From an uncultured Pseudomonadota bacterium (GTDB taxonomy: Bacteria; Pseudomonadota; Gammaproteobacteria; Natronospirales; REEB76), in assembly GCA_963774895.1 (NCBI GenBank), contig CAVZGN010000004.1:299825-363824 (forward strand): 64,000 bases of DNA, in the 5' to 3' direction. This document shows positions 19,495-46,309 of the stretch, piece after piece; position 1 is the first letter of the stretch; the number at the start of each line of letters is the position of its first letter. The notes beneath the pieces are model-generated. The model was not told where the DNA came from, ran no database searches, and saw nothing but the letters and a program-made list of their open reading frames with translations. A program made the position numbers and the translations under genes.

Positions 19495-19515
19495 TTCAAT
19501 TCCCCAGTAAGTCCA

Positions 19516-20556: not shown

Positions 20557-20583
20557 TAAACTCTAGTAAGCCTTGCTTAATAC

Positions 20584-21798: not shown

Positions 21799-21815
21799 GG
21801 ATATAACCGGCGGCG

Positions 21816-22919: not shown

Positions 22920-24646
22920 CAGAAGCCCAATGTCACATCAGTCGTTATCTCCGGGGTAACATCAATGGGCACCTCCGGCGCCTGGCTGCCAGGTTGCACA
23001 TTCAAGTCACTCACATTCTGTAGTTCAATTTCGCCGTTGTTCCAAGTAATTGCAATGGATTCCTGCATCACCACGCCACGGGAAATACCGTTTTTGTAGA
23101 CCACAATGGTTTTTGTATTTGTCGCCCAAGTCTCGAAATATTGCAACAGGTTTCTGTCTTTCCATACCTGGATAATGGTCGATTCTACACATACAACTAC
23201 AGAAGCTGGTGCTGATAAAAGCATTAAAAGTTGGAGCTCTGAAAAATTGTCATGAGTGAAGGTACGCCAGATATCTGTAGCAATAGGTTGATCGACTTTG
23301 CTCCATAGCTCTCCAATCAATGGCTGTATTGCTTTTAACAACTCAGGATCGAGTTCAGTGCGCTTGATTGCAGACGGCATATAATCAATCAGGGTCGAGC
23401 TTACCGGCACTCCTTCAAGAAATAAGGGAGGGTATCGGACTGAATAGAATATTCCATTGGACTTGCTGGCTATAAATCGGTACAGACCGGGAATGAACGA
23501 ATCTTGCATGTAAGATACTGGCATTACTCCCGCGCTCATCTTAGGGAGGCTGGCGATGAGCTCTCCAGCTCTTTGCTCCCATGGCCAAGATTTCAGTTCG
23601 CCCGAGAGCTTGGAGACCAGCATGAAATAATAATTGACGGGCTGGTAGAAGCGATTGAGACTCGTGATGCTCACCATAGTGCTTTTGAGGCTGGAATATG
23701 CGAAATTTGTAAGCAATACAAACAATACCACGTGATTAAGATCTATCTTTATGCCAATCAGCGCAGCTAATAAGAAAAGTGCTGCCACTATTGCGACAAA
23801 TGTAATGCCGGTCACGGCACGGCTGGTGGCAAAAATGGAATATATAGATATTCTGGCATCCAGATTTGTCCCAATTTCTCCCTCAGTAAAGGTGCGATTA
23901 ATCAAGGCTTCAGCGCTTGGGCTTTTTGCTGGATTTGGCGTCAATATATAATTCAAAACATTTCTGTACTGTTCCGTTGCTTTCTGAGCAGTATCTTCTT
24001 CGGTTCGGGTATCCCTCGCGGCTTTTATGCTGTTATACGCATGCAGCCACATGGATATGACAATAATTCCGCCAAGCAACAGTGTTAACCAGGGAAATAC
24101 GATCAACAGTATTACAGCGCATGCCAATAGTGTGAATACCGAGCGTACCGCACCCATGGTGATATAGGCTATGCGCTGAAGAAGAGCGCAATTTGTTGTC
24201 AGTACGCGGAGCAGCACTTCGCGCGCATTCTTCCCGGCCAGCACGCTGTCCAAGGATGGTGATCCAATACCTTTTGTAGCCAGTAACCATGAAAGTCTGC
24301 GCATACAAAATCGCTGGTATTCCACAGCCAGAATCGATTGCAATTTCTCGGCACGATACTGCGTCCAGCTCTGCAATAACAAGAGAATGACAATAACAAG
24401 GCCTACTGCTAACAGCCCCCATGGGGATGCTGGATTCCAATCGTGATGGTAGAAACGCATTGGAGAATGTTTCTGAAGACTTTCAGCGAACCGCTCTGCG
24501 ACTCCCACTGCCAGCAATCCCGCACCTATCCCAAAGAAGTAAAGACCGATCGCTGGCAGCGTTAGCTTAGCTTGATGCCATAACAGGTCCTTGACGACAA
24601 GGTTAACGGTCCGTGCATAGGCTGACAATTTCACGAAACCGAACAT
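22919..24646 (-). CDS. ABC-exporter-like membrane protein with degenerate nucleotide-binding domain
   Basis: 575 aa; about 6 TM helices spaced like a MsbA/PglK TMD in the first ~345 aa; soluble C-terminus lacks Walker A and LSGGQ. Confidence 0.55.
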   Translation of the reverse strand: MFGFVKLSAYARTVNLVVKDLLWHQAKLTLPAIGLYFFGIGAGLLAVGVAERFAESLQKHSPMRFYHHDWNPASPWGLLAVGLVIVILLLLQSWTQYRAEKLQSILAVEYQRFCMRRLSWLLATKGIGSPSLDSVLAGKNAREVLLRVLTTNCALLQRIAYITMGAVRSVFTLLACAVILLIVFPWLTLLLGGIIVISMWLHAYNSIKAARDTRTEEDTAQKATEQYRNVLNYILTPNPAKSPSAEALINRTFTEGEIGTNLDARISIYSIFATSRAVTGITFVAIVAALFLLAALIGIKIDLNHVVLFVLLTNFAYSSLKSTMVSITSLNRFYQPVNYYFMLVSKLSGELKSWPWEQRAGELIASLPKMSAGVMPVSYMQDSFIPGLYRFIASKSNGIFYSVRYPPLFLEGVPVSSTLIDYMPSAIKRTELDPELLKAIQPLIGELWSKVDQPIATDIWRTFTHDNFSELQLLMLLSAPASVVVCVESTIIQVWKDRNLLQYFETWATNTKTIVVYKNGISRGVVMQESIAITWNNGEIELQNVSDLNVQPGSQAPEVPIDVTPEITTDVTLGF

Positions 24647-24711: not shown

Positions 24712-26808
24712 TTATTTATGCCTTCTAAACAGTAAAACTCGCAACCGGCTAAATATCTGCGAAAATAACCCGCGCTTCAAGGTTGATGAAATCACGCTTA
24801 CGGGATGTACGGTCTTGCCTGCATCCATGTCCTCATCAGCATTCGCGCCTCCTGTGCTCTCGCTAGGCTTTCCCTTTACCTCCTTTGTTTGCTTTAACAT
24901 TGACTGGACTGTTTTCCCCGTTTTCAGCACATCCCCAGCTATAGTTTCGAGTTGAGTTCCAACCCTGTTTACAACGCCGCCTGGCCGTGAGCGAACCATG
25001 ACAGAGATTTTATTTCTGCCCTCGTCGTACACGTCCCAGTGGCAAGGGTGATGCAATATCTGCAGAGACGTCACTATTGGTTGAGCTACGAATGCAGATA
25101 GCCGCTGCTTGAATTCCTCTTTAGTCATAGGTGGCGCGAGCGTGCCCTTAGGAGCGCCCGCCATAAGCTCGGCAAGCCAGCGGCTGCCGGTGTCCGCAAT
25201 ATCCGAATTTCGATATACAAAATAGACTTCGTACTTGAAACCGAAATCCGCTAGCCGAAGTCTATGCAATTTAACGCGCCAATTGCGGTATTCGATGCTT
25301 CGACCAATCTGATCGGGTGTTATGCGCTTCCGAATACAATCAGAGAATATCTCGTAGTTGGAATATTTCAGCTTACGTCCGAGAGGATTGCCGTGTGCGG
25401 CGGTGCCAATGAGCGGTACTCCGCTATCTGCGAAGAAATCCACTTCCCGGCGCAGTATCTCCTCCGGGTTTTTCTGCAGCATCAGGGAGAGCGAAACGAC
25501 ATCATTATGCAAACCGATTTCATGTCCTAGGCCGATGAATCGCCGGCATTTTTCTATCAAGTCGGGTTGATGTACGATCAGACCGCTCTCAAGTGCGCCA
25601 TAGTAGTTGGATTTTTCGCCATAGCTGCCCGGTGTCAGCAAGAAATAGGTGGATTTGTAGCCTCGCTGCGCCTCCGCTTCAGCGATAAGCAACGCGGTAT
25701 CAATGTCGTGATCCACATCATGACGTATGAAATACCTTGGTGGGACCTTTTCTCTTAACTCCGATATGTGAACCAGCGGGAGATTAACCAGATCAAGAAA
25801 ATCATTGAAATAATCTATTCCGTCATCTCGTTTGATGACTTTCAGTGTTCTGAGTGTATGTGTCAATGTCGATTTCTTGGGTAAATTCCCTGCCCTGATA
25901 TCTCTAACAGAGAGTGGTCTTTCGATGGGTGATATTTTGATTCCTGCCTCATCGAACACATCCCAATGACATGGATTCACTTGAATTTGTAAGCTATGGA
26001 TATCCGCTGAATCAAGCCAAGTAAGCATTTCGCAAAATTTTTCTTTACCGAACGAATCACCTAGATAATCTTTAATCCTTCTTTCACCAATCTTGCCCAC
26101 CCATTGACTACCGAAATCAGAGATGCGCGCATCTTTCTGCAGCGAAGATGCCTCATAATGAAAGCCATAATCGATTAGCTTTAGACTATGAAGTCTGATC
26201 TGCCAGCCCTCATATTCCACAATTCTGCCGCGCTCCCATCCCGGCTTGAAACAATCCTCAAATATCTCTAAATTCATGTATTCCAGCTCGTGCGCCAAAC
26301 TGCTTTCATGTGATGCCGTACCGACCAGCGGAATGCCGTTTTGTACAAAGAATTCCGTTTCACGTTTCAGTATGTCGGCGGGACTTTGTTTGAATCGAAA
26401 TGCGAGAGATAACACTTCATTTAGAAAACCAATTTCATGTCCTAGATCGATAAAGCGTCTGCATTTGTGAACTAGCTCCGGGTCATGTGCGATCATGCCA
26501 TCCCGTAGAGTGCCATAGTAGTTAGTCTCCCCGCCGTAACTACCCGGGGTAAGCAAATAATAAGTCGATTTGTAACCGCGCTGTGACTCGGCTTCTGCCA
26601 TGAGCAGAGCCGCATTGATATCATGGATAACATCGTGACGGATGGCATAGCATTGCTGAGAAGCATTCTTCATCTCCGACATGTAAATTAGCGGTAGTTT
26701 CACCAGATCAAGAAAATCATTGAAATAATCTATTCCGTCATCTCGCTTGATGACTTTCAATGTTCTAAGTTTGGACAGCATGATTATTTCCCTGAATGCA
26801 ATCGTCAA
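24712..26808 (-). CDS. Protein with two tandem polysaccharide deacetylase-like domains (start may be 26781)
   Basis: Internal repeat LRTLKVIKRDDGIDYFNDFLDLV; RHDV(I/D)HD, STY(Y/F)LL and PCHW motifs each occur twice. Confidence 0.8.
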   Translation of the reverse strand: MTIAFREIIMLSKLRTLKVIKRDDGIDYFNDFLDLVKLPLIYMSEMKNASQQCYAIRHDVIHDINAALLMAEAESQRGYKSTYYLLTPGSYGGETNYYGTLRDGMIAHDPELVHKCRRFIDLGHEIGFLNEVLSLAFRFKQSPADILKRETEFFVQNGIPLVGTASHESSLAHELEYMNLEIFEDCFKPGWERGRIVEYEGWQIRLHSLKLIDYGFHYEASSLQKDARISDFGSQWVGKIGERRIKDYLGDSFGKEKFCEMLTWLDSADIHSLQIQVNPCHWDVFDEAGIKISPIERPLSVRDIRAGNLPKKSTLTHTLRTLKVIKRDDGIDYFNDFLDLVNLPLVHISELREKVPPRYFIRHDVDHDIDTALLIAEAEAQRGYKSTYFLLTPGSYGEKSNYYGALESGLIVHQPDLIEKCRRFIGLGHEIGLHNDVVSLSLMLQKNPEEILRREVDFFADSGVPLIGTAAHGNPLGRKLKYSNYEIFSDCIRKRITPDQIGRSIEYRNWRVKLHRLRLADFGFKYEVYFVYRNSDIADTGSRWLAELMAGAPKGTLAPPMTKEEFKQRLSAFVAQPIVTSLQILHHPCHWDVYDEGRNKISVMVRSRPGGVVNRVGTQLETIAGDVLKTGKTVQSMLKQTKEVKGKPSESTGGANADEDMDAGKTVHPVSVISSTLKRGLFSQIFSRLRVLLFRRHK
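25787..25830. repeat. 44-bp exact direct repeat, copy 1
   Basis: ACCAGATCAAGAAAATCATTGAAATAATCTATTCCGTCATCTCG, identical to 26702-26745. Confidence 0.95.
26702..26745. repeat. 44-bp exact direct repeat, copy 2
   Basis: Identical to 25787-25830; spacing 915 bp. Confidence 0.95.
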
Positions 26809-27704
26809 TCTGTCTTCGCAACGGGCGTCGATCGGACTATGGATGATATTTTAATCCCCGCTTCATCATAGACGTCCCAATGACAGGGGTGCATAAGGAT
26901 TTGTAAAGAATAGACTTTCCCGAGAACAAGATTGGCAAGCCTTTCGAGAAATTTATCTTTACTGAACGAACCATTAAGCTCAGCGTTTAGTTTTATACGA
27001 TAAATCCTGCCACCCCATTGACCGCCGGAATCGGATATACGCGCATCTTTCGGCAATGAGTAGGCTTCATAATGAAAACCGAAATCGATTAATTTCAGGC
27101 TATTAAGTTTCACCTGCCAGCCTTTATATTCTATAGTTCTACCGTACACCAGTTTTTTTCTGAAACAATCCTCAAATATCTCCATATTTATATAATTCAA
27201 TTGGTTCGCTAAAGGACTACCATGGGCAGCTGTACCGATTAGTGGTATGCCGTTGTCCGAAAAATAATCGACTTCGCGTTTCAGGATGTCAGCAGGATGT
27301 TTTCTGAAACGTAATGCGAGGGATATTACGTCGTTATGAAACCCGATATCATGGCCGAGTTCAATGAAGCATCTGCATTTTTCAATAAGCTGCGGATTAT
27401 GAGTTATGACACCATCTTTGATGGTGCCATAATAATTCGTTTCCTCACCATAACTTCCGGGTGTGAGCAGAAAATAGGTTGATTTGTATCCGCGATTCGC
27501 CTCCGCTTCGGCAACCAGGAGTGCCGTATCGATATCATGGTCCACATCATGGCGAATGGCATACCGTGGTGGTGGTGTGGTCGCAACTTCAGAAAGACGA
27601 ACGAGTGGCAACTTAATAAGATCGAGATAATCCGAGAAATAATCAATACCGTCATCAGATTTGACAACTCTAAGTTTCCGATCAAGATTTTTCATTTCAT
27701 GCAT
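26805..27704 (-). CDS. Polysaccharide deacetylase-like protein
   Basis: IRHDVDHD, GFHNDV, GTAAHGS, HPCHW; paralog of both domains in 24712-26808. Confidence 0.8.
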   Translation of the reverse strand: MHEMKNLDRKLRVVKSDDGIDYFSDYLDLIKLPLVRLSEVATTPPPRYAIRHDVDHDIDTALLVAEAEANRGYKSTYFLLTPGSYGEETNYYGTIKDGVITHNPQLIEKCRCFIELGHDIGFHNDVISLALRFRKHPADILKREVDYFSDNGIPLIGTAAHGSPLANQLNYINMEIFEDCFRKKLVYGRTIEYKGWQVKLNSLKLIDFGFHYEAYSLPKDARISDSGGQWGGRIYRIKLNAELNGSFSKDKFLERLANLVLGKVYSLQILMHPCHWDVYDEAGIKISSIVRSTPVAKTD

Positions 27705-32417: not shown

Positions 32418-33551
32418 ATGAACGTAGGCATAGTCAGTCACTGGTTTAACCGTGGGCAGGCGACTGTTGCCCGACACATCCGATCGATCTTTGATGGACT
32501 GGGGCATAAGACATTCGTGCTGGCTAGACCAACCACCGAAAGCTTTGTGTTCCCCACTTATACCTCAGATAACGATATCTGGGAGCAACAGGGTGTGACA
32601 AAGGCGAGTGCCTATAACATCAGTGAGACTGAGTATCTGGCATGGAGCAGGAAATGCAATATAGACGTTGCGTTTTTTGACCAGAACTATCAGTTTGACT
32701 GCATCAGAAAATTGCGTCAGCAGGGTCTCGTTACAATTGGGCGGTTTGTTTGGGAAAGCTTTGCTGAAAAACACGCCAAAGAAGCGCGCGAAGCATTTTC
32801 TATCATTTATTCCCTCACACTCTGCGAAAGAGAGCGGTATCATAGTTTTGGGATAGATAGCCCTTACCTGCTTTGGGGATGTCATCCGGAATTGTTATCT
32901 TTTACTCAACATCGCAGCAATCAAGGCCGTAACTTTTTCTATGCTGGCGGCTATCTGTCAGCCAGAAAACCCACCGGTGCGGTCATCAAGGCATTTGCAG
33001 ATGTACCTGATGCTGCACTGCGGCTCTTGATAAAAACCCAATGTCCACTTAGTCCGTCAGATCTCACATGTCCAGCAACACTTGATGAATTGAAAGCTAT
33101 ACGTAAACTGGACCGCGGGCAGCCAGCACCCCCCATAGATGATCCGAGGGTTACTGTTCAGGATAAGGACGTTTCAATGGAGGACTACTACTGCCTGTTT
33201 TCTTCCAGCAATGTATCCATGGCGCCTAGCAGGTGGGAAGGCTTGGGACTTCATCTTTATGAGGCTCTGGCCTTTGGCATCCCGACCATCAGTCTGGACA
33301 TCCAGCCTATAAATGAAGTGATAACCCATGGAGTAGACGGTCTGCTTGTAAAGAGTCGGCCAATCGGTGAAACCCCATCTGGTATCACTGCTTATGAGCC
33401 GGATGTCGGCGATCTTGCTAACGCAATTAGAAGTCTCACCGACCCCGTAAACGCTCAAAAGTTTGCCGACGGCACACGCCACGGCAGAAAATATCGCGAT
33501 TGGGCCAAGACAGTCAGCGCATACGCACAATTGCTCGCTCACGTCACGTAG
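32418..33551 (+). CDS. GT4 glycosyltransferase
   Basis: PSRWEGLGLHLYEALAFGIP (EX7E motif). Confidence 0.88.
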   Translation: MNVGIVSHWFNRGQATVARHIRSIFDGLGHKTFVLARPTTESFVFPTYTSDNDIWEQQGVTKASAYNISETEYLAWSRKCNIDVAFFDQNYQFDCIRKLRQQGLVTIGRFVWESFAEKHAKEAREAFSIIYSLTLCERERYHSFGIDSPYLLWGCHPELLSFTQHRSNQGRNFFYAGGYLSARKPTGAVIKAFADVPDAALRLLIKTQCPLSPSDLTCPATLDELKAIRKLDRGQPAPPIDDPRVTVQDKDVSMEDYYCLFSSSNVSMAPSRWEGLGLHLYEALAFGIPTISLDIQPINEVITHGVDGLLVKSRPIGETPSGITAYEPDVGDLANAIRSLTDPVNAQKFADGTRHGRKYRDWAKTVSAYAQLLAHVT

Positions 33552-33556
33552 CTGCT

Positions 33557-34489
33557 ATGGCGAACGAAGAAAAGCTTCTAACAGTTTTCGCCCAGGGCAT
33601 GCGTCGCTCAGGCACGACAATCTGGTTTGACCTGATGATGGAAGATGGAACCTATGAATGTTTCTATGAGCCCTTGGCTGCGGGAAAAACGACCTTAGGA
33701 GGCGGCAGCAGTGCGCATGCTAATAAAGACCTGTTCGCCAACCTGCGTCTGGCCCGGGAGCGATTTCTAAAAGAAAACCCCCAATTACTAAAGAACTTCC
33801 CAGGATTCGTGTCAGAAAATCTTCTGAACTACGGCGCTCCGAGAAAACCCGAGTTGGAATTTGAAACCGAATTGCCGGGATATTGCAAGGAATATATCTT
33901 GTTTCTCATCAGGAGCGCGCCGAAGACTTTTCTAAAATTCACGCGCATGTATTCTAAGGTTGCTGTTCTAAAAGAACTTGTGCCAGATGCCAGGCTTCTG
34001 CATCTGGTTCGGGATCCCAGGCATGTCACCACGTCGTATATGTTTGGGAAAAACGGTAAATATAAGGACAGGTTTCCTGACGCGGATACTTTCTTTTCCA
34101 AAACATCGGCATATACCGCGTGGTCAAGCCGGGCGTTTTCTGACCTTATTCTCAAACAACCGCAATACCGGCATCTTGCCGGCTGTCCTGACTTTATGAG
34201 CATCCTGCTTATCTGGAAATATGCTTTCGAACAAACTCATGTCACAGGAAAGAAACTATTCGGTGATAATTACCTGCTTTTGCGTCATGAAGACTTGCTG
34301 ATTGAGCCACATAATACCGTGAGTAAACTTGGTGCTTTCATAGGTTCACCTTTGAATCCGCGGGCCACGAATTGGGTTAAAGAAAATCTACGATCACTCT
34401 CCACCCCTTTTGCTAAGTCCGATCCCCGGTGGGAGTTGGCTTTCAAGCAATTGAAAATGTCCGATACTCTCTTGGCCGCAGGCTACTAA
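33557..34489 (+). CDS. PAPS-dependent sulfotransferase
   Basis: 5'-PSB loop GMRRSGTT, FYEP, 3'-PB motif LHLVRDPRHVTTS, LRHEDL. Confidence 0.9.
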   Translation: MANEEKLLTVFAQGMRRSGTTIWFDLMMEDGTYECFYEPLAAGKTTLGGGSSAHANKDLFANLRLARERFLKENPQLLKNFPGFVSENLLNYGAPRKPELEFETELPGYCKEYILFLIRSAPKTFLKFTRMYSKVAVLKELVPDARLLHLVRDPRHVTTSYMFGKNGKYKDRFPDADTFFSKTSAYTAWSSRAFSDLILKQPQYRHLAGCPDFMSILLIWKYAFEQTHVTGKKLFGDNYLLLRHEDLLIEPHNTVSKLGAFIGSPLNPRATNWVKENLRSLSTPFAKSDPRWELAFKQLKMSDTLLAAGY

Positions 34490-34768: not shown

Positions 34769-35491
34769 CTATTTACGGATAAGAACTAGACATCGTCTCA
34801 ATTTTAAGTTTGGTTTACTCGGATTTAAGTTTACAACCTGCATTTTATTCAGTCTCGTTGCATAGTCGTCAAATCTCCAGTATTTTTTATAATGCTTGTT
34901 CTCATCCACCAGTTTCCCAAGTTCTTCGTGATCCTGATCATTATAGATCGGGCAAATAATGCATAAATCACTACAACTCTCGATTTGCTTGATCGCATGC
35001 GTCAGCCCGTCCTCAGTGACCACGTGCTGAAACATCTCCATTGCGGTGCAGATATTAAAACGTTTACGCCAGAAGGCATTCTTTCTGGGCAGGTATCTCC
35101 TGCCAAGAGAATCCCTGCTAATATCATACTTAAGGATATTTATATCGCTATACTTTGCCTTTACAAATTCCAGCGGAGCTGAAGAAATATCGGTGGCAAG
35201 AATATTCACTGGCGAGAGTCCGTAATTCTTTATAAAGAAATCGATCCAATAGCCTGTACCGCAACCCATTTCCACGAAGCTCTTTGGGCTAATCTTAAGT
35301 GCATTTATAGTCTTATGAATAAATTTTTCAAGACCTTCGTATTTCTCTTTGGCATTTGCTATATCTTCCTCAGTAACTTCTTTTGAGGTGTTATGTGCTG
35401 CCTGTGTATGGCGATCAGCATCTTTGAACTTGTTAAGTTCATTCCAGCGTTTATCCCAGAACTCCTCCGATTTATTTTTCTCATCAACCAT
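34769..35491 (-). CDS. Class I SAM-dependent methyltransferase (AT-rich)
   Basis: EEFWDKRW, VEMGCGTG, ATDIS, EMFQHV. Confidence 0.85.
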   Translation of the reverse strand: MVDEKNKSEEFWDKRWNELNKFKDADRHTQAAHNTSKEVTEEDIANAKEKYEGLEKFIHKTINALKISPKSFVEMGCGTGYWIDFFIKNYGLSPVNILATDISSAPLEFVKAKYSDINILKYDISRDSLGRRYLPRKNAFWRKRFNICTAMEMFQHVVTEDGLTHAIKQIESCSDLCIICPIYNDQDHEELGKLVDENKHYKKYWRFDDYATRLNKMQVVNLNPSKPNLKLRRCLVLIRK

Positions 35492-35650
35492 TGAGATCAC
35501 CCCACTAAGCACAATCAATAATATATATAATAAGTTTTCCGGTACAACCGTCTAAGTTCTTAACAAGCATTGGTAATCAGAAAAGACCTTATGCATTTCC
35601 CCTGATCGTCCGCTCCAGGCCGGATGCTGACCGGTACGACGAGGTTCTTA

Positions 35651-36364
35651 TTATTCTTGTCCTTGATCAGCCATTTCCTGAGCCTTCAAACGAGTTATCA
35701 AGAAATGCAGGTTTTCAAAAAACGAATAGCGAATGATCTTGACGTTGCCGGCCTTCCAGAAAGGTACCAGGAACGACTGCACTGAATGGTGGTATTTCCC
35801 TCCGCGAAAATCCACGCTCTCGGTCTTGCGCGGACTACGGTTGAAGGGCAATTTCGCATCCTCCATGCTGGTATAGGTCCCCATAAGCCTCGGTTCTGAA
35901 GAGAATATCGAATAAAAGAGTCCTTGTAGCGAAAGTTTGCTATGCCAAGATTCGATCACCGCGATGCTTCCCGGGCGATCCATATCATGCTGGTTATAGA
36001 GTCCCGGTCCGCGGGCAAAAATCACGTCAAAATAACCATCATCAAAAGGCAAATGCTTTTCCGCATCAACCACAAGAAAATGCCCGACATCGGTATGCAG
36101 CAGTCGGCGCGCCTTTTCAATGCCGCCTTTGGAGATGTCGACACCGAATAATTCCAGGTCAGGATTAATGAGTTGCATGCCTCGCGACCAGATTCCATCG
36201 CCGCAACACAAGTCGAGTACGCGGCCACCTGCCGGCAGCTTCACGTGTGCTCGTAGCCATTTAACCACATACTCCTCTGTGTATTCGAAACCCTGTTCGG
36301 ACTCGTAAAAGCGATCTGTGGCCTCAAGAGCAATTGACGGATCGCTGTATGTCTCGTGACTCAT
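35651..36364 (-). CDS. Class I SAM-dependent methyltransferase
   Basis: VLDLCCGDG, GVDIS, LPFDDGYFDVI. Confidence 0.88.
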   Translation of the reverse strand: MSHETYSDPSIALEATDRFYESEQGFEYTEEYVVKWLRAHVKLPAGGRVLDLCCGDGIWSRGMQLINPDLELFGVDISKGGIEKARRLLHTDVGHFLVVDAEKHLPFDDGYFDVIFARGPGLYNQHDMDRPGSIAVIESWHSKLSLQGLFYSIFSSEPRLMGTYTSMEDAKLPFNRSPRKTESVDFRGGKYHHSVQSFLVPFWKAGNVKIIRYSFFENLHFLITRLKAQEMADQGQE

Positions 36365-36368
36365 GGCG

Positions 36369-38450
36369 TTAGCCTCGCCCAACAAGACTACGCTCGATTA
36401 ACCGGAAGCCTTTCAAATTCACACTCAATTGCGGCTGATCCTTTTGAAGGTAAATTGCGAAATCGATTCGCGAAATGCCTTCCGGTGCCCGATATGAAAC
36501 TGGGTGCGTGACGCTGTGCGGTCGTAGATAAGCCAGGTTTTTCTTCATTCGCAATTCGAAGTCGTTCCCAAAGCATAACGCAATGACACGCGCCTCTCCT
36601 CGCCCTAGAACTTCTGCATCAATTAACAGCTCATAATAACGTCCAGGGTTTACTGGCCAACCCTGTTTAGAATTTATTCTGCGCCACGGACAGTGTCCTA
36701 ACGTCATATATCCATGTTGACTAGGATTTACGAGCGTTAGCAGTAAAGCCTCGTCGCTTTTCTTTGCATTTAGATTAGAAATACGCAAATTGCTGTCGTT
36801 ATTATTATTAAATTGCACTTCTACCAAAATAACTCCTGGCACATCTAATACGGAATTTATTGATACACCGCCAACGATTGCAGTCTTTCTGAGTATCCTG
36901 GTTGCAAACCGTAGTGGATACTGGAGAAACCGTATAATGTAATCACGCCAAGTTAAGCGCCATCGGTCATCGCTATAGAATTGATCCACCACGAACCCGC
37001 AGACCTGCCAGAAACGCCAACGCTGATAAACGTTCCACTTATTTAAAGCTGACATCTGGTTTATCTGTCCATTATTTATAGATGTTCTATGCACCGGCTC
37101 AGCAAGACGTGGGTAGAAAGCGATTCCCACACTCTGTAGTGACTTTTTAAGTTGCTCCTTGTTGGTCGCGATGTCTTCAAGGCGTATAACTACTGGACAT
37201 GCAACCGATAAACGCAACATCACGTCGGCAACATAAATGCAGCATTTATCGAACTGCGGTAACCATTTCCATGTGGGTCTATTGATTTTGGGATGAAGAT
37301 TATCATCCGGAGTCGTGTACCAATCCCGATTCATGATTGATCTGACTATATCGGCGGGATGACGCGCAAGTTGCACCAAGGTCGCTTCGGGGAAAAGCTG
37401 CTTTAATTCTGGGATAAACTGTTCCAGATATACATTCACCTCGGCATAGTCGCGCTTATTATGTTCGATATCCATGCGGAGATCTGCCAGCAAACTCACA
37501 ACCTTTTCACGCTGTTCCAGCAGTTGTGTGAATCCGGCGCCTGTTTCCTTGCGGGTTAACATCTGTATTCCGTCAAAATAATGATTCAGCGCATATTCAT
37601 GACGGGCATGCACGGAACTTGCTTCATCGAGTACTCTTGCAAGCCAAGTACTGCCAGAGCGCGCAGTGGACAGAAAGAAGTACTGGCGTGCTTTACCCAG
37701 CCAGTGCACCGGATGAAATAGGACTTGATGCCGGCCGCTCTTTAAAGTGGCGGTCATAGGGTCAGGACTGCGCAACCAGCTGCCCCCGCTATCCGTGAAA
37801 TAATCATCAAATGGTACATGCATGGCATCGTATACCAGCCCGCACTCCTTCAATCCGATGCTCCACAGAGGAAAAGTTGCGCCATCTGCGCGTTGCAGTT
37901 GGTGTGAGGCAGGGTATTGCAAGGCATGCTTGGGGTCTTCGGGTGAAATGCCTTCGGCTGAAAGACCAGTCTCCCGCAAGGCAGGATCGGCCGGCTTTAA
38001 GTCGCGAAAACACCAATAATTGCTGAACTGGTATTTATAACAGGCGCGATCGCCATGCGCAGATACACCGGTGATTCGTACTCCTTGTTGTTTCAGTGGC
38101 TTAACCAGAGAGGTAATCGCATCAGCCACATCGTCAATCTCGCCTGTAAACCAGCGAGTCAACATATTGAGGTGCAGTCCTACTTCATGCCCGAAATCCT
38201 GCAACTGCAGGCATTTATCGATAAAACGAGAGTCGTTCCAGTAATCGGCAGAATGCAGAAGAAAATAGGTGGCGCGATAGCCGTATTCTGCTTCCCAATA
38301 TGCCATCTCAAGCCCAATATCAAGATCATGGTCCACGTCATGCCGCAAAACCACGAGATTGGGGGCATCTTTTTTGCTGTGTAATGCGGAGACCGGCTCG
38401 GTATTTCCCAGATGGCGTAGATACTCGAAATATTCCTTGCGAATGGTCAT
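36369..38450 (-). CDS. Fusion of polysaccharide deacetylase-like domain, sulfotransferase and C-terminal beta-sandwich
   Basis: LRHDVDHD, GLH, SAHG, HPVHW, then STARSGST and LARHPADIVRS; ATG overlaps the upstream stop (ATGA). Confidence 0.8.
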   Translation of the reverse strand: MTIRKEYFEYLRHLGNTEPVSALHSKKDAPNLVVLRHDVDHDLDIGLEMAYWEAEYGYRATYFLLHSADYWNDSRFIDKCLQLQDFGHEVGLHLNMLTRWFTGEIDDVADAITSLVKPLKQQGVRITGVSAHGDRACYKYQFSNYWCFRDLKPADPALRETGLSAEGISPEDPKHALQYPASHQLQRADGATFPLWSIGLKECGLVYDAMHVPFDDYFTDSGGSWLRSPDPMTATLKSGRHQVLFHPVHWLGKARQYFFLSTARSGSTWLARVLDEASSVHARHEYALNHYFDGIQMLTRKETGAGFTQLLEQREKVVSLLADLRMDIEHNKRDYAEVNVYLEQFIPELKQLFPEATLVQLARHPADIVRSIMNRDWYTTPDDNLHPKINRPTWKWLPQFDKCCIYVADVMLRLSVACPVVIRLEDIATNKEQLKKSLQSVGIAFYPRLAEPVHRTSINNGQINQMSALNKWNVYQRWRFWQVCGFVVDQFYSDDRWRLTWRDYIIRFLQYPLRFATRILRKTAIVGGVSINSVLDVPGVILVEVQFNNNNDSNLRISNLNAKKSDEALLLTLVNPSQHGYMTLGHCPWRRINSKQGWPVNPGRYYELLIDAEVLGRGEARVIALCFGNDFELRMKKNLAYLRPHSVTHPVSYRAPEGISRIDFAIYLQKDQPQLSVNLKGFRLIERSLVGRG

Positions 38451-40090
38451 GGAGACCCCATCAATTCCCGATAATATTCCGTCAGTTTTGTAGCCTCGAT
38501 TTCCCAATTGAAATCTGTTGCTGCGCGCTTCATGTTACGACGAACATGTTCAAGAATGGCAGGATCATCGAGAACAGCACGCGCAGCGCGCGCGATATTC
38601 TCTGGCTCATCTGGGTTGAATGTCATGCCAATGCCGTAGTCTTCAACGACTTTCCTCAATTCAGGGAAATCACTAGCTATAACGGGTATGCCAGCCAATA
38701 CATACTCATACACCTTGTTTGGCGAGCAGTAGTAGTAACTCAGGCATTTATTTTCAATTGGGGCGACACCAATATCCGCGCAGGCCGCATACGTAGTGAC
38801 AAGATCAGAACGTACTGCTTCCAAAATATAAAGACGGTGGACAATACCTAGTAAATCTGCATGCTTCAAGAGTTCTTTCTTGTACGTCTCGCTTCCTGGT
38901 CCCATAAATACCAAAACGCACTCTGGCAGCAGTTGCATAGCAGAAATCAATTGCTTCAATCCACGATTGAAGGTAATGGCGCCCACATATATTAAAATCT
39001 TTATTTTCGCATCGATTTTAAGAATCTCACGTAATGGATCTCCGACCGGCGCATCGACAGGTCGCTGGAGTGAAGGGGTATTGCGGATAACCTTTAGCGG
39101 CGCAATATCGTAACGTTTACCAATAGCCTCAGCTATAGATTCATTGACAGTAATAGCAAGCTGGCAACGCCTTAGCAGGAAACCTTCGAGCTTGAGCCTC
39201 CACCATCTAGAAAACCGTCCGTAAGGCTTTTGCATATTGCGCTCAAGATAGTACTCGTGTGAGTCATATACGAGCTTGGCTCCGGTAGCACGCGCCATCC
39301 ACCATGCTAGTGGTAAGGTATTGAGATCGTGCGCATGGTAAACGTCGAAATGTCTTTTTGTGAGCGCCCTTCTGGCTCGTAGATAATAGTCGGAAAAGCA
39401 TAACGGCCGATGATACTTGAGCAACACCTTCAACAATAGCGTGTATATCCATCCTTTCAAAATCCTTAATGTGATTTTGAATCCCCTTTTCATCCTGCGC
39501 CATCCATGCACCATTGTTCGGATAAAAAAGCGCAAGACAGACATCGTGATTCGTGCGTAGAATTTAACCTGCCATGGAGAGTTGTACTCCACATCAGATC
39601 TCGGTTCTACGAAATAATAGATGCCAATCTCCCAAAACATCACTGGTATGCTTATTGGAAAAACCAGGATAAGCAATGGCCAATACCAAACTGGAAAACG
39701 CGGCTGAGTGTCGGTATTTACATTCTGTTTACCTCGTGACCTTCGAAACAATCTTCCTACAGTTGCATGCATGAGAGAATTTATCCGCAACAGCGTCCAT
39801 AGTTTGATTACGGGAGTCAACAAGGCTGTCGTGCGAAAAATTCGCAAGAATCTCAAATGCACTGGATCCTTTATCACGCGTAGCACTTCAATCTCACCCA
39901 ACATCTGTCTTTCCGGCAACGTTCCTTCTCGCAACGCTACTACCGTTACCGACCAACCATCAGCCAACAGCGTCTCGGCCTCTTTACGGACACGCGCATC
40001 ATGGGTAAAGGTGTTGTAAACAAACATGCACACGCTGCCGCGGTGGATCGGTGCCAGCGGTGGCGTATCATGTTCCGGCACAATAGACAC
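38447..40090 (-). CDS. GT4 glycosyltransferase with large hydrophobic/basic insertion
   Basis: DARVRKEA, HAHDLNTL, YDSHE, SPNKVYEYVLAGIP; 547 aa. Confidence 0.88.
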   Translation of the reverse strand: MSIVPEHDTPPLAPIHRGSVCMFVYNTFTHDARVRKEAETLLADGWSVTVVALREGTLPERQMLGEIEVLRVIKDPVHLRFLRIFRTTALLTPVIKLWTLLRINSLMHATVGRLFRRSRGKQNVNTDTQPRFPVWYWPLLILVFPISIPVMFWEIGIYYFVEPRSDVEYNSPWQVKFYARITMSVLRFFIRTMVHGWRRMKRGFKITLRILKGWIYTLLLKVLLKYHRPLCFSDYYLRARRALTKRHFDVYHAHDLNTLPLAWWMARATGAKLVYDSHEYYLERNMQKPYGRFSRWWRLKLEGFLLRRCQLAITVNESIAEAIGKRYDIAPLKVIRNTPSLQRPVDAPVGDPLREILKIDAKIKILIYVGAITFNRGLKQLISAMQLLPECVLVFMGPGSETYKKELLKHADLLGIVHRLYILEAVRSDLVTTYAACADIGVAPIENKCLSYYYCSPNKVYEYVLAGIPVIASDFPELRKVVEDYGIGMTFNPDEPENIARAARAVLDDPAILEHVRRNMKRAATDFNWEIEATKLTEYYRELMGSP

Positions 40091-40095
40091 AGCGT

Positions 40096-41253
40096 TTACA
40101 TCACTGACGCAAACGCGCTCACAAGATGTTGTTGATCCTCTATACGCAAATAGGGACCGGACGGTAAACTCATCACTTCATGACAGGCCTGCTCGGAGAC
40201 CGGGAAATCGTCAGGTTTATATTCAAGACCGCTGTAGGCACTCAGTAAATGTAACGGTTTTGGATAATAGACAGCTGTTGGTATCCCTTGCGATTTCAGT
40301 TTCTGTTGCACGCTATCGCGTTTACCGGGAACACGTACGGTATATTGTGCCCAAGCTGACAAACAGTCTTTTGGAACACGCGGTAAAACCTTCGACAATC
40401 CAACGGCTGTAAATAATTCCGCATACCGGTCTGCCACTTGCTGTCGAAGCTGCAGCTCGCCTTCGAATTGAGGCCACTTCGCCAGCAAGATTGCCGCCTG
40501 CAATGTGTCCATGCGTGCGTTCAGTCCAATACGTACATTGTCGTATTTGTCCTCGCCCTTGCCATGTATGCGAATGGAAAGCATGGCTGCGGCCAGTGCC
40601 TCATCGTCTGTAAACACCATACCGCCGTCACCGTAACATCCAAGCGGCTTTGCCGGGAAGAAACTGGTGGTGGAAACATCGCCAAAACAACATGCAGGGC
40701 GGCCACGATATTTCGCTCCAAAAGATTGGGCTGCGTCTTCAATAAGAAATAGTCCTTCTTTCCGGCAAATGGCGGCTATGGATTCATAATTGGCCGGGAC
40801 ACCGAAAATATCCACGGCGATCACGGCGGCACAATTGAGTGGCTGATTCAGCCTTGGCAAGGGATAAATCGTGGAATCGTTCTCGCGCACTGCACGAATC
40901 GCAAGGCGCAATTGCTCGGGGTTTATGTTGAAAGTTTCTGGTACAACATCCACGAAGATCGGCGTTGCCCCCACAAGCGATATCATTTCGGCGGTGGCAA
41001 AAAACGTAAACGGCGTGGTAAACACGGCATCCCCGTGTCCGATTTCGCGCGCCATCAGCGGCATGAGCAGTGCGTCAGTACCGGAAGAGCAGGAAATCGC
41101 ATGCCGCTTCCCCGTATATTCTGACAACGTGCGTTCCAGTTCCTCGATTTCCGGCCCCATGATGAACTTTCCATGTTCAAGCACATGTTTTATTCGTTCA
41201 AGTATGGCCTTGTGCGACAGTTCATACTGAGTTCTAAGATCGATGAATTCCAT
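40096..41253 (-). CDS. wbpE: DegT/DnrJ family aminotransferase (WbpE-like)
   Basis: MEFIDL, IEDAAQSFGA, SFFPAKPLGCYGDGG; follows wbpA-B-D. Confidence 0.88.
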   Translation of the reverse strand: MEFIDLRTQYELSHKAILERIKHVLEHGKFIMGPEIEELERTLSEYTGKRHAISCSSGTDALLMPLMAREIGHGDAVFTTPFTFFATAEMISLVGATPIFVDVVPETFNINPEQLRLAIRAVRENDSTIYPLPRLNQPLNCAAVIAVDIFGVPANYESIAAICRKEGLFLIEDAAQSFGAKYRGRPACCFGDVSTTSFFPAKPLGCYGDGGMVFTDDEALAAAMLSIRIHGKGEDKYDNVRIGLNARMDTLQAAILLAKWPQFEGELQLRQQVADRYAELFTAVGLSKVLPRVPKDCLSAWAQYTVRVPGKRDSVQQKLKSQGIPTAVYYPKPLHLLSAYSGLEYKPDDFPVSEQACHEVMSLPSGPYLRIEDQQHLVSAFASVM

Positions 41254-41274
41254 CTATATTTCCGATTTTGGGCA

Positions 41275-41850
41275 TCAGACGCCAGACAACCGGCCGTCAC
41301 GCAATATATACACCTCACCGGTCTGCGGACACAATGCTTGTCCCGTACCCTGAACTGGCAGATCTAGCCTGTTTCCAGCGCGGCTCATCCAACCGATATG
41401 ACGCGCTGGCACACCCACCATCAACGCGAAATCCATGACATTACTGGTGATAACTGCGCCAGCACCTACAAATGCGTATTGGCCGATGGTTACACCACAT
41501 ATGATGGTGCAGTTAGCGCCCAGTGACGCACCGCGACGAACAAGCGTATCACGGTACTCGTCTTTGCGAATAACCGCGGCGCGCGGATTATAGACATTGG
41601 TGAACACCATACTAGGGCCGCAAAACACGTCATCTTCCAGCGTCACATTGTCGTATACCGATACATTATTTTGGATCTTGACGTTATTGCCGATGAGCAC
41701 GCGATTTCCCACAAACACGTTTTGACCGAGCGAGCAGCGCTCGCCGATCACTGCGCCACCGCATACATGAACCCAATGCCAGATACGCGTACCTTCCCCG
41801 ATTCTGGCGCCGGCATCGACGATGGCAGTTTCATGTGCGGAATAACCCAT
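41275..41850 (-). CDS. wbpD: Hexapeptide-repeat N-acetyltransferase (WbpD-like)
   Basis: 191 aa; [29 protein letters not shown]. Confidence 0.92.
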
Positions 41851-41867
41851 GTCACGGCATTCCTTGA

Positions 41868-42947
41868 TCAATAGTCCAGCGGCAGGGATACTCTGCGACC
41901 ATCGCGCGCCGAGATGTATATGGCAACCAGCAGCTCCAAGGAGCGCAATCCCTCGCGGCCGTCGGTCTCAGCCTCGGCTTCACCCCGCAGTGTTTTGATG
42001 ACGTTCTCATAATAGAGAGCATGCCCGAAACCATAGACTGAGGTGGTGTCGTAATTGGCTTTTCTGACAAGCTCGTCGTCGGCATCAGAGTCAGCAAACT
42101 GCCAGTGTTGGATCTCATTGACTGCGACGCCCCCAACTCTCACCGTGCCTTTCTCTCCCAGTATCGTAATGGAGCCCTCAAGATTTTTGGGGTATGTAAG
42201 CATGGTGACGTTCATGGAACCCAGTGCGCCGGAGCGCCATTTGATACTCACCACACCGCTGTCTTCCACCTCGATGTTGCGTGCCAGGGTGGCTGTGAAG
42301 GCCTGAACACATTCCACCGGCCCGACCAGCCAGTCCAGCAAATCCACATAATGGCTTGCCTGGTTCATGAAGGCACCTCCATCGAATTCCCAGGTGCCAC
42401 GCCATTTAGCGCTATCGTAATAGGCTTGGGGGCGGTTCCATAAGACGTTAACATTGACCATATAGATACGTCCGAAGCGCTTTTTTTCGATGGCACGCTT
42501 CAATAACTGGATGGTGGCATTGCGGCGATTCTGCTTGACGACGAATAACATCACGCCCGCTTCATCGCAGGCTTTGACGAAATCCTTGCCGTCTTCCCAG
42601 CGTGTGGCCATGGGTTTCTCCGACACCACGTGAAACCCGGCTTTGGCAATTTGTATGCCCTGGCTGGCATGTAGGCCGCTCGGTGTGGCCAGTATGACGG
42701 CATCGAAGCCCCCGGCCCCGAGCATAGATTTCAGGTCAGGGTGGCCTTTGACTTCAGTATTGCCACAAGCCGCCTTCAGAGCAGTCGCATCGGTATCACA
42801 CACAGCTACCAACTCGGCATGTTCCGCGTGTTTTTGCAGGGATTCGAAGTGCTTCGCAGAAATGCGCCCACAACCCACGAGGGCAAATCGGATTTTCCGA
42901 TCGCATATTGGTTTGTAATTACCAGTCATATTCATCGCATCCTTCAA
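41868..42947 (-). CDS. wbpB: UDP-GlcNAcA 3-dehydrogenase, Gfo/Idh/MocA family (WbpB/WlbA-like)
   Basis: [42 protein letters not shown]. Confidence 0.9.
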
Positions 42948-44281
42948 GCCTTGACGACATTGTCATACTGATCGCGGTAGACACCACGACTATCCACGAT
43001 CAGTTTTGCATACTTGCGAATTTTGTCATAATCAAAATCGGTATGATCTGTAGCCACCAGCACGCAATCGAAGCGCGTAAGCGACTCATCGGTCAATGCA
43101 ATGCTCTTGAGGTCAAAACTATGGTCGCGCATCTTTGGGAATGACGGTACGTAAGGATCGGAGTACTCCACATGGACACCCTTGCTTCGCAGTATTTCCA
43201 TAATATGCACCGAGGGTGATTCGCGCATATCGTCCACGTTTTTCTTGTATGCAATCCCCAATACTAGGATATGGCTGCCATTCAGGGCCTTACCCCGCTT
43301 GTTCAGGCCATCCACGATTTTTGATACTACCCAATCCGGCATAGCGCTGTTGACCTCACCCGCGAGTTCTATGAAGCGGGTATGCACGCCGTATTCGCGC
43401 GCCTTCCAGGTAAGGTAGAACGGATCAATGGGAATGCAATGCCCGCCCAAGCCCGGGCCCGGATAATACGGCACGAAGCCGAAGGGTTTGCTGGCAGCTG
43501 CATCAATGACTTCACGGATATCGATACCCATGCGGTCGGCAACGATTTTCATCTCATTCACCAATCCGATGTTCACAGCCCGGTGTATGTTCTCCAACAG
43601 CTTGGTCATCTCGGCCGCACGGGTGGAACTGACCGGTATTATCTTATTAACCACCTGCTCGTAAAGTGCTACGCCGATGTCACGGCAAGCTGGCGTATAA
43701 CCGCCGCACACTTTTGGAATGTTGGAGGTGGTGAAATTCATATTGCCTGGATCCTCGCGCTCGGGCGAGAACACTAGAAATACATCCTTGCCAACGCGTA
43801 GACCACGACTTTCAATACGCGGTTTGAGTTCCTCGTCGGTAGTCCCGGGATAAGTAGTACTTTCCAGTGAAACTACCTGGCTGGAGCGCAGATGCGGTAC
43901 CAGTGCATCCATGGTGTCGGTGACGAATGAGAGATCCGGCTCGCGATGCGAATTCAGTGGTGTAGGTACACAGATAATCAGTGCATCCGCCTCTTTGGCG
44001 CGCGCGAAATCCGTGGTGGGTTGGAATCCCGCTTTGATGGCTGCGCCGATTTTCGGATCAGCGATATGTTTAATATAGCTGCGGCCTTGCTGCAACGTCT
44101 TCACTTTGTCCGGATCGATGTCGAAACCGATGACTTTGTAACCGACTTCGGTGAAACGCAGCATCAGCGGCAATCCGACATAGCCGAGACCCACGATGCC
44201 GATCACCGCCTGGCGATCATGCAGCTTCTGTAGAAGCGCTTCTTGATGATTGTGCTTGGAATCGTTCATTTCCGACTGCAT
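42944..44281 (-). CDS. wbpA: UDP-GlcNAc 6-dehydrogenase (WbpA-like)
   Basis: [40 protein letters not shown]. Confidence 0.92.
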
Positions 44282-44596: not shown

Positions 44597-46309
44597 CTAT
44601 TCAAGAAAACCGGCCGACTTGATGAGCTGCATGACCCGTTCCGCCTCTTCCTCGACCGTACCCTGGCCCGTGTCCAGTATAAGTTCAGGTTTCTCCGGCG
44701 CTTCATACGGATCACTGATACCGGTAAATTCCTTGAGAACGCCGGCACGTGCTTTGGCGTAAAGCCCCTTGCGATCGCGTTGCTCGCAGATCTCAATGGG
44801 AGTCGAAATGTAGATTTCGAAAAATCCGCCTAAAGGTTGGATCATATGACGCACATCCAAGCGGGTCGCGGCATACGGCGCAATAGGGGCACAAATTGCC
44901 ACGCCGCCGTTCTTGGTAATTTCGCTGGCTACATAGCCGATGCGACGAATATTGATGTCGCGATGTTCTTTTGAAAAACCTAACTCGCTGGATAAGTGCT
45001 TGCGCACCAAATCACCATCCAGCATGGTCACTGGACGGCCACCGATCTCCAGCAGCTTGACCATCAGCGCATTTGCGATGGTGGATTTTCCGGAGCCTGA
45101 CAATCCGGTGAAGAACACCGTGAAGCCCTGCCGGTTGCGCGGCGGATGAGTCTTGCGCAGTTCCGCCACCACTTCCGGGTAGGAAAACCATTCAGGGATT
45201 TCTAAACCCTTCTGCAGCCGCTCACGCAAATCGGTACCGGAGATATTCATGACGGTTTCGCCGGGCTTGATCTCGTCTTCGGGCGCATAACCGCCGCGTT
45301 CCTTGACGTAGACCATCATCTGGAAAGGTACCATCTGTATACCGATTTCATTCTCATATTTTTTCAACATTTCCTGAGCATCATAGGGACCATAGAAAGG
45401 TTTGCCGCGGCTGTCCTTGCCAGGACCAGCGTGATCGCGGCCCACGATGAAATGCGTGCAGCCGTGGTTCTTGCGGATGATGGCATGCCACACCGCTTCC
45501 CTCGGTCCACCCATGCGCATGGCCAGGGGCAGCAAAGCCAGCAGCGCCGAATGTTCGGGATAATGATCGATCAGGTGTTCGTAGCAACGCACCCGGGTAT
45601 AGTGGTCAATATCGCCCGGCTTGGTCATGCCCACCACCGGATTGAGTAACAGTTTGGCACCCACCTGTTCGGCTGCACGGTGCGTCAGTTCCAAATGTGC
45701 CCGGTGCATAGGATTACGAGTCTGGAATGCCACTACCTTGCTCCACCCACGTTGCTTGAACTGCTCGCGCACTTCTTGCGGTGTGAGCCGCAGTTGACGG
45801 AAATCATAATGCGTGGGTAACTCGATACCTTCGATACGCCCACCTAAATATACAGGGTTTGATATATGCAGCAGATGAGCGACACCTGGGTGCATCTCGT
45901 CTTCTGTACCAAAAACTACACGTGCTTCGCGGCGTAGGTCCGGTTCCCAGATGTCCTCCACCGTAAACAGTGCCAGTGGCACACCTTCTGCATCCCGCAG
46001 GGCGATTTTAGTTTCGGTTTTTAGCTTGCTGGCAAATTCCCGGCTCACGTCCAATGTGACAGGCATAGGCCAAAGACGGCCGTCAGTCAGACGCATCTCC
46101 TCCACCACGCGTTCGTAATCTGCGCGGTTCATGAAACTTTCGAGTGGTGAAAAACCCCCGTTGAGAAGAAGCTCGATGTCACAGAGTTGACGTTGGGTCA
46201 GATCCCACGACTGGAAGCCGATGGCATCTTGTTTAATTCGAGCTGCTGTGACGTCATCGACGTGAAGTCCATTCAATGGTTTTCCGTGCTGCTGGACAGA
46301 TTTATTCAT
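44597..46309 (-). CDS. sat/cysC: Bifunctional sulfate adenylyltransferase / adenylylsulfate kinase (PAPS synthesis)
   Basis: FQTRNPMHRAH and VGRDHAG (ATP sulfurylase), then [29 protein letters not shown] (APS kinase). Confidence 0.96.
   Translation of the reverse strand: MNKSVQQHGKPLNGLHVDDVTAARIKQDAIGFQSWDLTQRQLCDIELLLNGGFSPLESFMNRADYERVVEEMRLTDGRLWPMPVTLDVSREFASKLKTETKIALRDAEGVPLALFTVEDIWEPDLRREARVVFGTEDEMHPGVAHLLHISNPVYLGGRIEGIELPTHYDFRQLRLTPQEVREQFKQRGWSKVVAFQTRNPMHRAHLELTHRAAEQVGAKLLLNPVVGMTKPGDIDHYTRVRCYEHLIDHYPEHSALLALLPLAMRMGGPREAVWHAIIRKNHGCTHFIVGRDHAGPGKDSRGKPFYGPYDAQEMLKKYENEIGIQMVPFQMMVYVKERGGYAPEDEIKPGETVMNISGTDLRERLQKGLEIPEWFSYPEVVAELRKTHPPRNRQGFTVFFTGLSGSGKSTIANALMVKLLEIGGRPVTMLDGDLVRKHLSSELGFSKEHRDINIRRIGYVASEITKNGGVAICAPIAPYAATRLDVRHMIQPLGGFFEIYISTPIEICEQRDRKGLYAKARAGVLKEFTGISDPYEAPEKPELILDTGQGTVEEEAERVMQLIKSAGFLE

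Follow-up and report, generated by a model that had tools for sequence, protein, structure and literature searches.

The window, by which we mean the whole 64,000-nucleotide stretch of DNA that was analysed, holds a glycan gene cluster in which one minus-strand gene joins a predicted deacylase, a PAPS sulfotransferase and a third domain in a single chain. The gene, its parts and its neighbours are as follows:

36369..38450 (-): whole fusion gene, deacylase plus sulfotransferase plus CBM-like domain, 693 aa
37695..38450 (-): NodB-type (WbmS-like) beta/alpha barrel, predicted metal-dependent de-N-acylase; residues 1-252, with D38, D40, H93, H132 and H246 invariant
36960..37694 (-): PAPS sulfotransferase (Sulfotransfer_3); residues 253-497, with S261-x-A-R264-S-G-S267, E285, R363 and S371
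36876..36950 (-): cationic amphipathic helices, predicted membrane-surface anchor; residues 501-525, poorly conserved in the family
36384..36842 (-): beta-sandwich jelly roll like CBM22/29/16/4, putative carbohydrate binder; residues 537-689
38447..40090 (-): GT4 glycosyltransferase, its stop overlapping the fusion start; conserved partner
40096..44281 (-): four WbpE/WbpD/WbpB/WbpA-type genes, which would make UDP-2,3-diacetamido-2,3-dideoxy-glucuronate
44597..46309 (-): bifunctional sulfate adenylyltransferase/APS kinase (PAPS supply), NF004040 above cut-off
34769..36385 (-): two SAM methyltransferases; neighbours 48-64% identical to the first lie in 9/43 related loci
32418..34489 (+): GT4 and a second, stand-alone sulfotransferase, a pair that recurs in 6/43 related loci
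24712..27704 (-): three extra deacylase-domain copies, a single one and a tandem pair whose first member lacks D40, H93 and H246
17602..24646 (-): nucleotide-sugar dehydratase, WecA-like initiating transferase, two GT4s and an unannotated membrane protein, the rest of the lipid-linked glycan cluster

Translation of 36369-38450 (-) gave 693 amino acids with no internal stops, bearing out the single open frame of the preliminary description, and all ten of the motifs quoted there sit where it placed them: LRHDVDHD, EVGLH, GVSAHG and HPVHW begin at residues 35, 89, 128 and 246 of the deacylase part, STARSGST, LARHPADIVRS and IRLED at 261, 361 and 422 of the sulfotransferase part, and WPVNPGRYYEL, YRAPEG and IDFAI at 598, 653 and 662 of the C-terminal part. 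Upstream lies the GT4 gene, whose stop codon overlaps the ATG of the fusion. No RNA data set holding the gene was listed. Contigs from public runs, possibly including the source sample itself, bridge both junctions with 0 differences (deacylase/sulfotransferase in run X1, sulfotransferase/C-domain in run X3), and together with homologues that span the full length they rule out a chance fusion or the assembly artefact that the preliminary description had held open. The only Pfam match on the protein was Sulfotransfer_3 (residues 258-375, E 2.6e-8, above cut-off), and no NCBIfam family matched it. The full AlphaFold model (pLDDT 93.7, pTM 0.92) shows three domains, and both the fold searches and residue conservation support these domains and their order as first proposed. 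GC content is 47% in the cluster and 56-58% across the genome's contigs; the fusion gene was found in 0/20 same-genus genomes and 1/40 relatives, a patchy presence that suggests a variable locus, probably acquired.

Folded alone, the N-terminal domain reached a pLDDT of 97 and best matched Bordetella WbmS (3hft; Z 10.8, rmsd 3.4, 169 aligned, 19% identity), with a lead of <1 Z unit over the next fold match. PplD, IcaB, PgaB and other NodB-type enzymes followed, with ArnD at Z 8.6 and ChbG at Z 7.3, such that nearly all top matches were NodB-type deacetylases and the distorted beta/alpha barrel expected of a deacetylase was recovered as a NodB-type barrel with WbmS on top. Foldseek went in the same NodB-type direction with weak E-values, and sequence profiles and the Atlas gave weak matches only, pointing the same way. 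WbmS, whose entry title places it in an O-antigen cluster, differs in being a single 242-residue chain. It is described as uncharacterised and divergent NodB1-like in the available text of one paper (PMC10967932) and given no function in that of another (PMC3849452); as neither text assigns a function to any WbmS-like member, the acyl group removed by the barrel is only putatively acetyl.

Residues R36, H37, D38, D40, H88, E89, H93, H132, D220 and H246 are kept in 120/120 aligned proteins. Position 97, four after H93, is L/I/M/V in all 120, so the canonical HxxxH of CE4 and NDST1 is absent; the third histidine is H132, and the aspartate pair is D38-x-D40 rather than a tandem DD. The canonical CE4 family PF01522 left the fusion protein unmatched and weakly matched 9/53 family members (best E 0.0047). 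In ChbG, according to the accessible part of its description, D11, H61 and H125 bind the metal, D10 is the base, H206 is the acid, and a strand further along supplies the third ligand (PMC9402603). The fusion resembles it in carrying its third putative metal histidine on a later strand, and a mapping by residue pattern rather than superposition would make D40, H93 and H132 the metal ligands, D38 the base and H246 the acid. ChbG differs in its lower fold score, and its YdjC family, PF04794, was rejected as an assignment, being unmatched throughout the genome (96% complete). From the putative roles of this Asp-His-His set and histidine acid, the N-terminal domain is predicted to be a metal-dependent de-N-acylase.

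Residues 253-497 are a PAPS sulfotransferase, with Sulfotransfer_3 (PF13469) scoring 34.8 bits against a cut-off of 27 and both PAPS-binding motifs conserved (R264, S267, R363, S371). R264, E285 and S371 are kept in 120/120 proteins and R363 in 119, and E285 aligns with the glutamate of the CurM PPEL motif. Against 48,161 solved chains, residues 253-500 matched TPST1 at Z 14.7 (rmsd 4.1, 208 aligned), an olefin-synthase sulfotransferase at Z 14.5 and TPST2 at Z 14.4, while the NDST domain 1nst reached Z 11.8. CurM was the best profile match (E 8e-5), and 1nst was absent among the 16 profile matches up to E 10. The domain thus appears to be of the tyrosylprotein/CurM type, sharing with the TPST and CurM/olefin-synthase enzymes its best fold (Z 14.2-14.7) and an R-S-G-S/T loop, but differing from them in identity (12-15%) and in its deacylase partner, which they lack. 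TPST1/2 and the olefin-synthase and CurM sulfotransferase domains are O-sulfotransferases, with TPST and CurM-type enzymes sulfating tyrosine or beta-hydroxy acyl oxygens.

Between sulfotransferase and C-terminal domain, an amphipathic cationic helix lies at residues 503-524, in a linker region of which >60% is covered in just 32/119 relatives. No hydrophobic leader or membrane-spanning stretch was seen in the fusion protein, whose one strongly hydrophobic peak, at 404, falls within the sulfotransferase fold. Residues 537-689 matched CBM22, CBM29, CBM16 and CBM4 at Z 11-13, a shared jelly-roll fold at 6-17% identity and with no Pfam match. The model accordingly agrees with the carbohydrate-binding-like jelly roll first suggested here, as a CBM-like beta-sandwich, but jelly rolls outside the CBMs, among them an Eph receptor and a phage tailspike, reach similar scores.

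A protein search returned 157 matches among 8000 candidates, and the best 120 of the 157 are 36-50% identical, nearly all covering 87-100% of the query and a few ~70%. The search for other proteins of this architecture that had been proposed thus yielded >100 full-length relatives in at least 6 bacterial phyla, and those with names are annotated solely as sulfotransferase or hypothetical. Named carriers include Anaerohalosphaera lusitana (AQT69608.1), Desulfuribacillus alkaliarsenatis (OEF96825.1) and Desulfobotulus pelophilus (MCW7755283.1). A genome scan kept 78 loci, and 43 of these match the fusion over a long stretch: 18 in Planctomycetota, 15 in Pseudomonadota, 2 each in Acidobacteriota and Verrucomicrobiota, and 1 each in Nitrospirota, Cyanobacteriota, Actinomycetota and a Woesearchaeota bin, the remaining 2 having no phylum label. 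The fusion is rare, being present among 201 sampled Planctomycetota in just two already-known carriers. In two bins, one labelled Planctomycetota (L023) and the other Verrucomicrobia (L034), the locus has the same genes and an identical deacylase domain, which likely reflects misbinning or recent transfer. The Woesearchaeota locus (L035), archaeal by bin label only, holds the full pathway and both the fusion and a reversed form of it described below. We conclude that the fusion is a real, conserved and apparently uncharacterised family. The WbmS-like family to which its barrel relates counts 6846 proteins at 50% clustering.

With only the sulfotransferase as seed, a metagenome scan found 45 loci, 38 of them strong; 36 of the 38 carry an in-frame deacylase upstream with all five residues, the other 2 end at a contig edge, and no deacylase substitution occurs in the 38. 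The 7 weak loci comprise one truncated fusion and six remote sulfotransferases with no deacylase, and L081 and L082 are likewise distant sulfotransferases of the fusion's type without one. A search for short stand-alone sulfotransferases gave 2 matches in 228 candidates, both with deacylase sequence attached. Across 287 partly redundant sequences, most of them found via deacylase-containing queries, so that the 38 alone form the unbiased test, both sites are present in 260, and an intact sulfotransferase beside a substituted deacylase in none. A further 22 have the deacylase with an incomplete or altered sulfotransferase, truncations counted in, and in ~14 of these, judged by eye, the sulfotransferase is decayed or replaced and the deacylase intact. 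At three loci (L033, L040, L043) the PAPS motifs are lost or the sulfotransferase replaced, and an intact deacylase and a WbpD-type gene are kept. Another locus (L126) shows a frameshift within the sulfotransferase.

The deacylase tree holds, beside the fusion's own clade A (support 100/100), a sister clade B (100/97) in which a sulfotransferase is fused to, or directly before, the deacylase in 13/13 loci. With one clade-B protein as query, 118 of the best 120 matches were ordered sulfotransferase-deacylase with catalytic residues conserved. The clade-B sulfotransferase is just 24-28% identical to that of the clade-A fusion, and since the order is also opposite, two separate fusion events are implied; the grouping of A with B has support 83/79, and the gene pairing may be older than both fusions. 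The two systems are joined in 3 proteins. The reverse-order proteins, ~600 aa long, share loci with the fusion (L013:15666-17522, L025:17112-18926, L035:11560-13413, L039:13815-15836 and others); Halochromatium glycolicum (L039) is thus a carrier of both fusions. The window's own extra deacylase copies (24712-26808 and 26805-27704) are a recent three-copy expansion, which falls in a third group of the tree, outside clades A and B. In the tandem protein 24712-26808 the second copy is intact, and the joint loss of D40, H93 and H246 from the first would be as expected of a dead enzyme copy. More distant deacylase relatives are fused to GNAT (P0216, P0243), hexapeptide acyltransferase (L068) or methyltransferase (L048, L050) domains, a pattern to be expected of a domain that exposes an amine for another modification. 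The last two are TPR-methyltransferase-deacylase proteins in Sterolibacterium and Accumulibacter bins (L048:8615-11524, L050:12648-15659).

Evaluating the neighbourhood further, a GT4 like 38447-40090 is adjacent or fused in 30/43 loci, nearby in 7 more, and present in 23/38 of the shorter metagenome loci. Two proteins have a GT4 domain fused ahead of the entire three-domain protein (L020:7961-12010 and P0197). The four upstream genes encode a nucleotide-sugar dehydrogenase, a Gfo/Idh/MocA oxidoreductase, a hexapeptide acetyltransferase and a DegT aminotransferase, a set that we label WbpA, WbpB, WbpD and WbpE by type. These four gene types, and the co-occurrence of WbpD-type genes with the fusion, are in keeping with the adjacent diacetamido-uronate pathway named in the preliminary description. 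A WbpD-type N-acetyltransferase is found in 40/43 carrier genomes versus 62/199 non-carrier Planctomycetota, under cut-offs that differed, each carrier's best match clearing the stricter one; the Fisher p of 1e-7 overstates the association, as some carriers are related and one pair (L023, L034) is a duplicate. Within Planctomycetota, 17/18 carriers, related genomes included, have the gene. Several WbpD matches lie in 530-570-residue frames, by their length putative dehydrogenase fusions, and a close WbpB match occurs in just 8/43 carriers. The 2-epimerase PF02350 has no match in this genome (96% complete) and is above cut-off in 23/43 carriers, so a gluco sugar is likely here and a manno form possible elsewhere.

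Given its initiating transferase, dehydratase, GT4s, PAPS synthase and, farther along, a ligase-like gene, the cluster probably makes an O-antigen-like glycan or one linked to protein. The ligase-like membrane protein (10278-12017) weakly matches TfpM, an O-linking oligosaccharyltransferase, at E 1.5e-6, far below cut-off. The 575-aa membrane protein at 22919-24646 has no Pfam or NCBIfam match and is possibly an ABC-exporter-like flippase; related proteins turn up repeatedly close to the fusion, in one case (L017:10001-13933) joined to it in a single chain. An unannotated 327-aa protein (27800-28783) has a 46% identical relative fused behind a sulfotransferase (L026:5283-7151). Other sulfotransferases and methyltransferases often number several per carrier locus, so partner assignments could be crossed. 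One Planctomycetota locus has an O-antigen-ligase/TPR gene and five more sulfotransferases downstream of the fusion (L007:13151-21492), and elsewhere in the window's own genome are six further strong Sulfotransfer_3 genes, clustered, in frames of ~550-620 residues (G000 C1:786939-798044 and C2:8345-10751).

Animal heparan sulfate NDST enzymes, which form N-sulfoglucosamine on heparosan, carry an N-deacetylase and then an N-sulfotransferase in one chain, and the fusion has the same order, a metal-type deacetylase barrel followed directly by a PAPS sulfotransferase. NDST1 309-882 aligned to residues 28-504 of the model at Z 11.4 (376 aligned, 9% identity), with an rmsd of 21 A over both domains, as the relative geometry differs. 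According to the accessible part of its structural description, NDST1 has a metal triad of D320, H389 and H393 after a tandem DD and a non-catalytic N-terminal Rossmann-like domain ahead of the deacetylase (PMC10864358). The fusion, in contrast, lacks the HxxxH (H389/H393 in NDST1), has DxD in place of DD, begins at the barrel with no Rossmann-like domain before it, adds a C-terminal jelly roll, has a sulfotransferase nearer TPST, and is predicted to be cytoplasmic within a lipid-linked glycan cluster. Direct homology was rejected, with no NDST among the PDB sequence matches or the 50 N-domain fold rows, and remote kinship is possible. The earlier term NDST-like consequently stands as an analogy of domain order and falls as a family assignment, given the missing HxxxH and N-terminal domain, the TPST/CurM-type sulfotransferase and the added jelly roll; the protein likely works like NDST through convergence and not through family membership.

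The reading that we favour, and on which our judgement is evenly poised, is that the fusion acts on the 2,3-diacetamido-uronate of a surface glycan carried on lipid, de-N-acetylating it and then N-sulfating the freed amine, as animals do when they begin heparin. The barrel would remove the N-acetyl group from the amino sugar in a metal-dependent step, the sulfotransferase would pass sulfate from PAPS to that same amine with E285 as base, and the jelly roll would hold the glycan chain. The acceptor would be 2,3-diacetamido-2,3-dideoxy-glucuronate, a product of the four upstream genes that the adjacent GT4 would transfer, and the site would be an undecaprenyl-linked glycan at the inner membrane face, as the missing leader and transmembrane stretch and the helix at 501-525 suggest. 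Placing the sulfate on nitrogen is the least certain of these steps; the one-way dependence of sulfotransferase on deacylase and the second, reversed fusion lend it indirect support. A broader proposal, which we put forward more tentatively, at slightly below even, is that bacteria arrived at an NDST equivalent independently and twice within one gene cluster, with two deacylase-sulfotransferase pairs of opposite order N-sulfating one or both amines of a 2,3-diamino-uronic acid to give heparin-like sulfamates on cell-surface glycans in many phyla.

The main rival, which we think rather unlikely, is that the two domains act separately on the same glycan, with the barrel leaving a free amine and the sulfotransferase adding an O-sulfate to give a zwitterionic sugar; the fusion would then merely co-localise two tailoring steps, or the O-sulfotransferase would recognise the free amine. 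The closest solved sulfotransferases, which act on oxygen, speak for this and against N-sulfation, as does the lower score of the NDST domain 1nst (Z 11.8 vs 14.7). The three unfused deacylase copies in the window and the persistence of the deacylase despite a decayed sulfotransferase (L033, L040, L043) favour it too, as do the distant sulfotransferases without deacylase (L081, L082), which together with the six weak loci count against the favoured reading. On the other hand, O-sulfation sits poorly with two separate, opposite-order fusions that involve different sulfotransferase subfamilies, with the 13/13 arrangement of clade B, and with the lack of an intact clade-A sulfotransferase beside a substituted deacylase; one-way dependence would equally be expected if deacetylation were needed by itself and sulfation were an optional O-linked extra, so it does not discriminate.

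More improbable still is that the barrel frees the amine for another enzyme, the neighbouring methyltransferase or an acyltransferase, or takes off something other than acetyl, for instance formyl as ArnD does, with the sulfotransferase acting elsewhere on the chain, for example as a terminal cap. Close methyltransferase relatives in 9/43 and 8/38 loci and the methyltransferase and GNAT fusions of distant relatives are in its favour, as is ArnD among the fold matches; however, only about a fifth of loci have the methyltransferase, against a fused sulfotransferase in most of them, a scan of 22 + 20 proteins of the window and of 88 neighbours showed no formyltransferase, and carriers track an N-acetyltransferase. 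We give very little weight to deacetylation and sulfation of a UDP-sugar or of a different residue (e.g. GlcNAc) in place of the lipid-linked diamino-uronate, for although 3/43 carriers have no WbpD-type match and the membrane helix is poorly conserved, the strong coupling to WbpD and GT4 argues otherwise, and the CBM-like domain, like the fusions to GT4 (L020, P0197) or membrane protein (L017), suggests that the substrate is an oligosaccharide.

Among the mostly open-access papers listed, we found no natural bacterial deacetylase-sulfotransferase fusion. Polymers of Pontiella have 75-80% N-sulfation deduced from nitrous-acid assays, and the available text states that such N-sulfotransferases are not known in prokaryotes (PMC7356697); N-linked sulfate in bacterial polymers is likewise described in a text whose available part calls the pathways not well known (PMC10483923). 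In what was available of an anammox glycoproteomics preprint (10.1101/2020.12.03.409086) there is no diacetamido or sulfated sugar to link to the fusion. In 15N spectra a signal near 93 ppm is the mark of an N-sulfate, against about 30 ppm for a free amine and 115-125 ppm for an amide (PMC9912281). NDST activity in bacteria is named as a bottleneck in heparin biomanufacture, for which artificial fusions have been used so far (PMC13353177, in its accessible part), and a natural bacterial NDST-like scaffold would be useful there even with a different acceptor. The fusion family is a concrete candidate, with cultured carriers, for bacterial N-sulfation, and may perhaps be present in the organisms for which such polymers are reported. 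If the broader proposal is true, these proteins would be candidate enzymes for the N-sulfated polymers reported from bacterial cultures and sludge; the fusion would also provide the first function for the large WbmS-like family.
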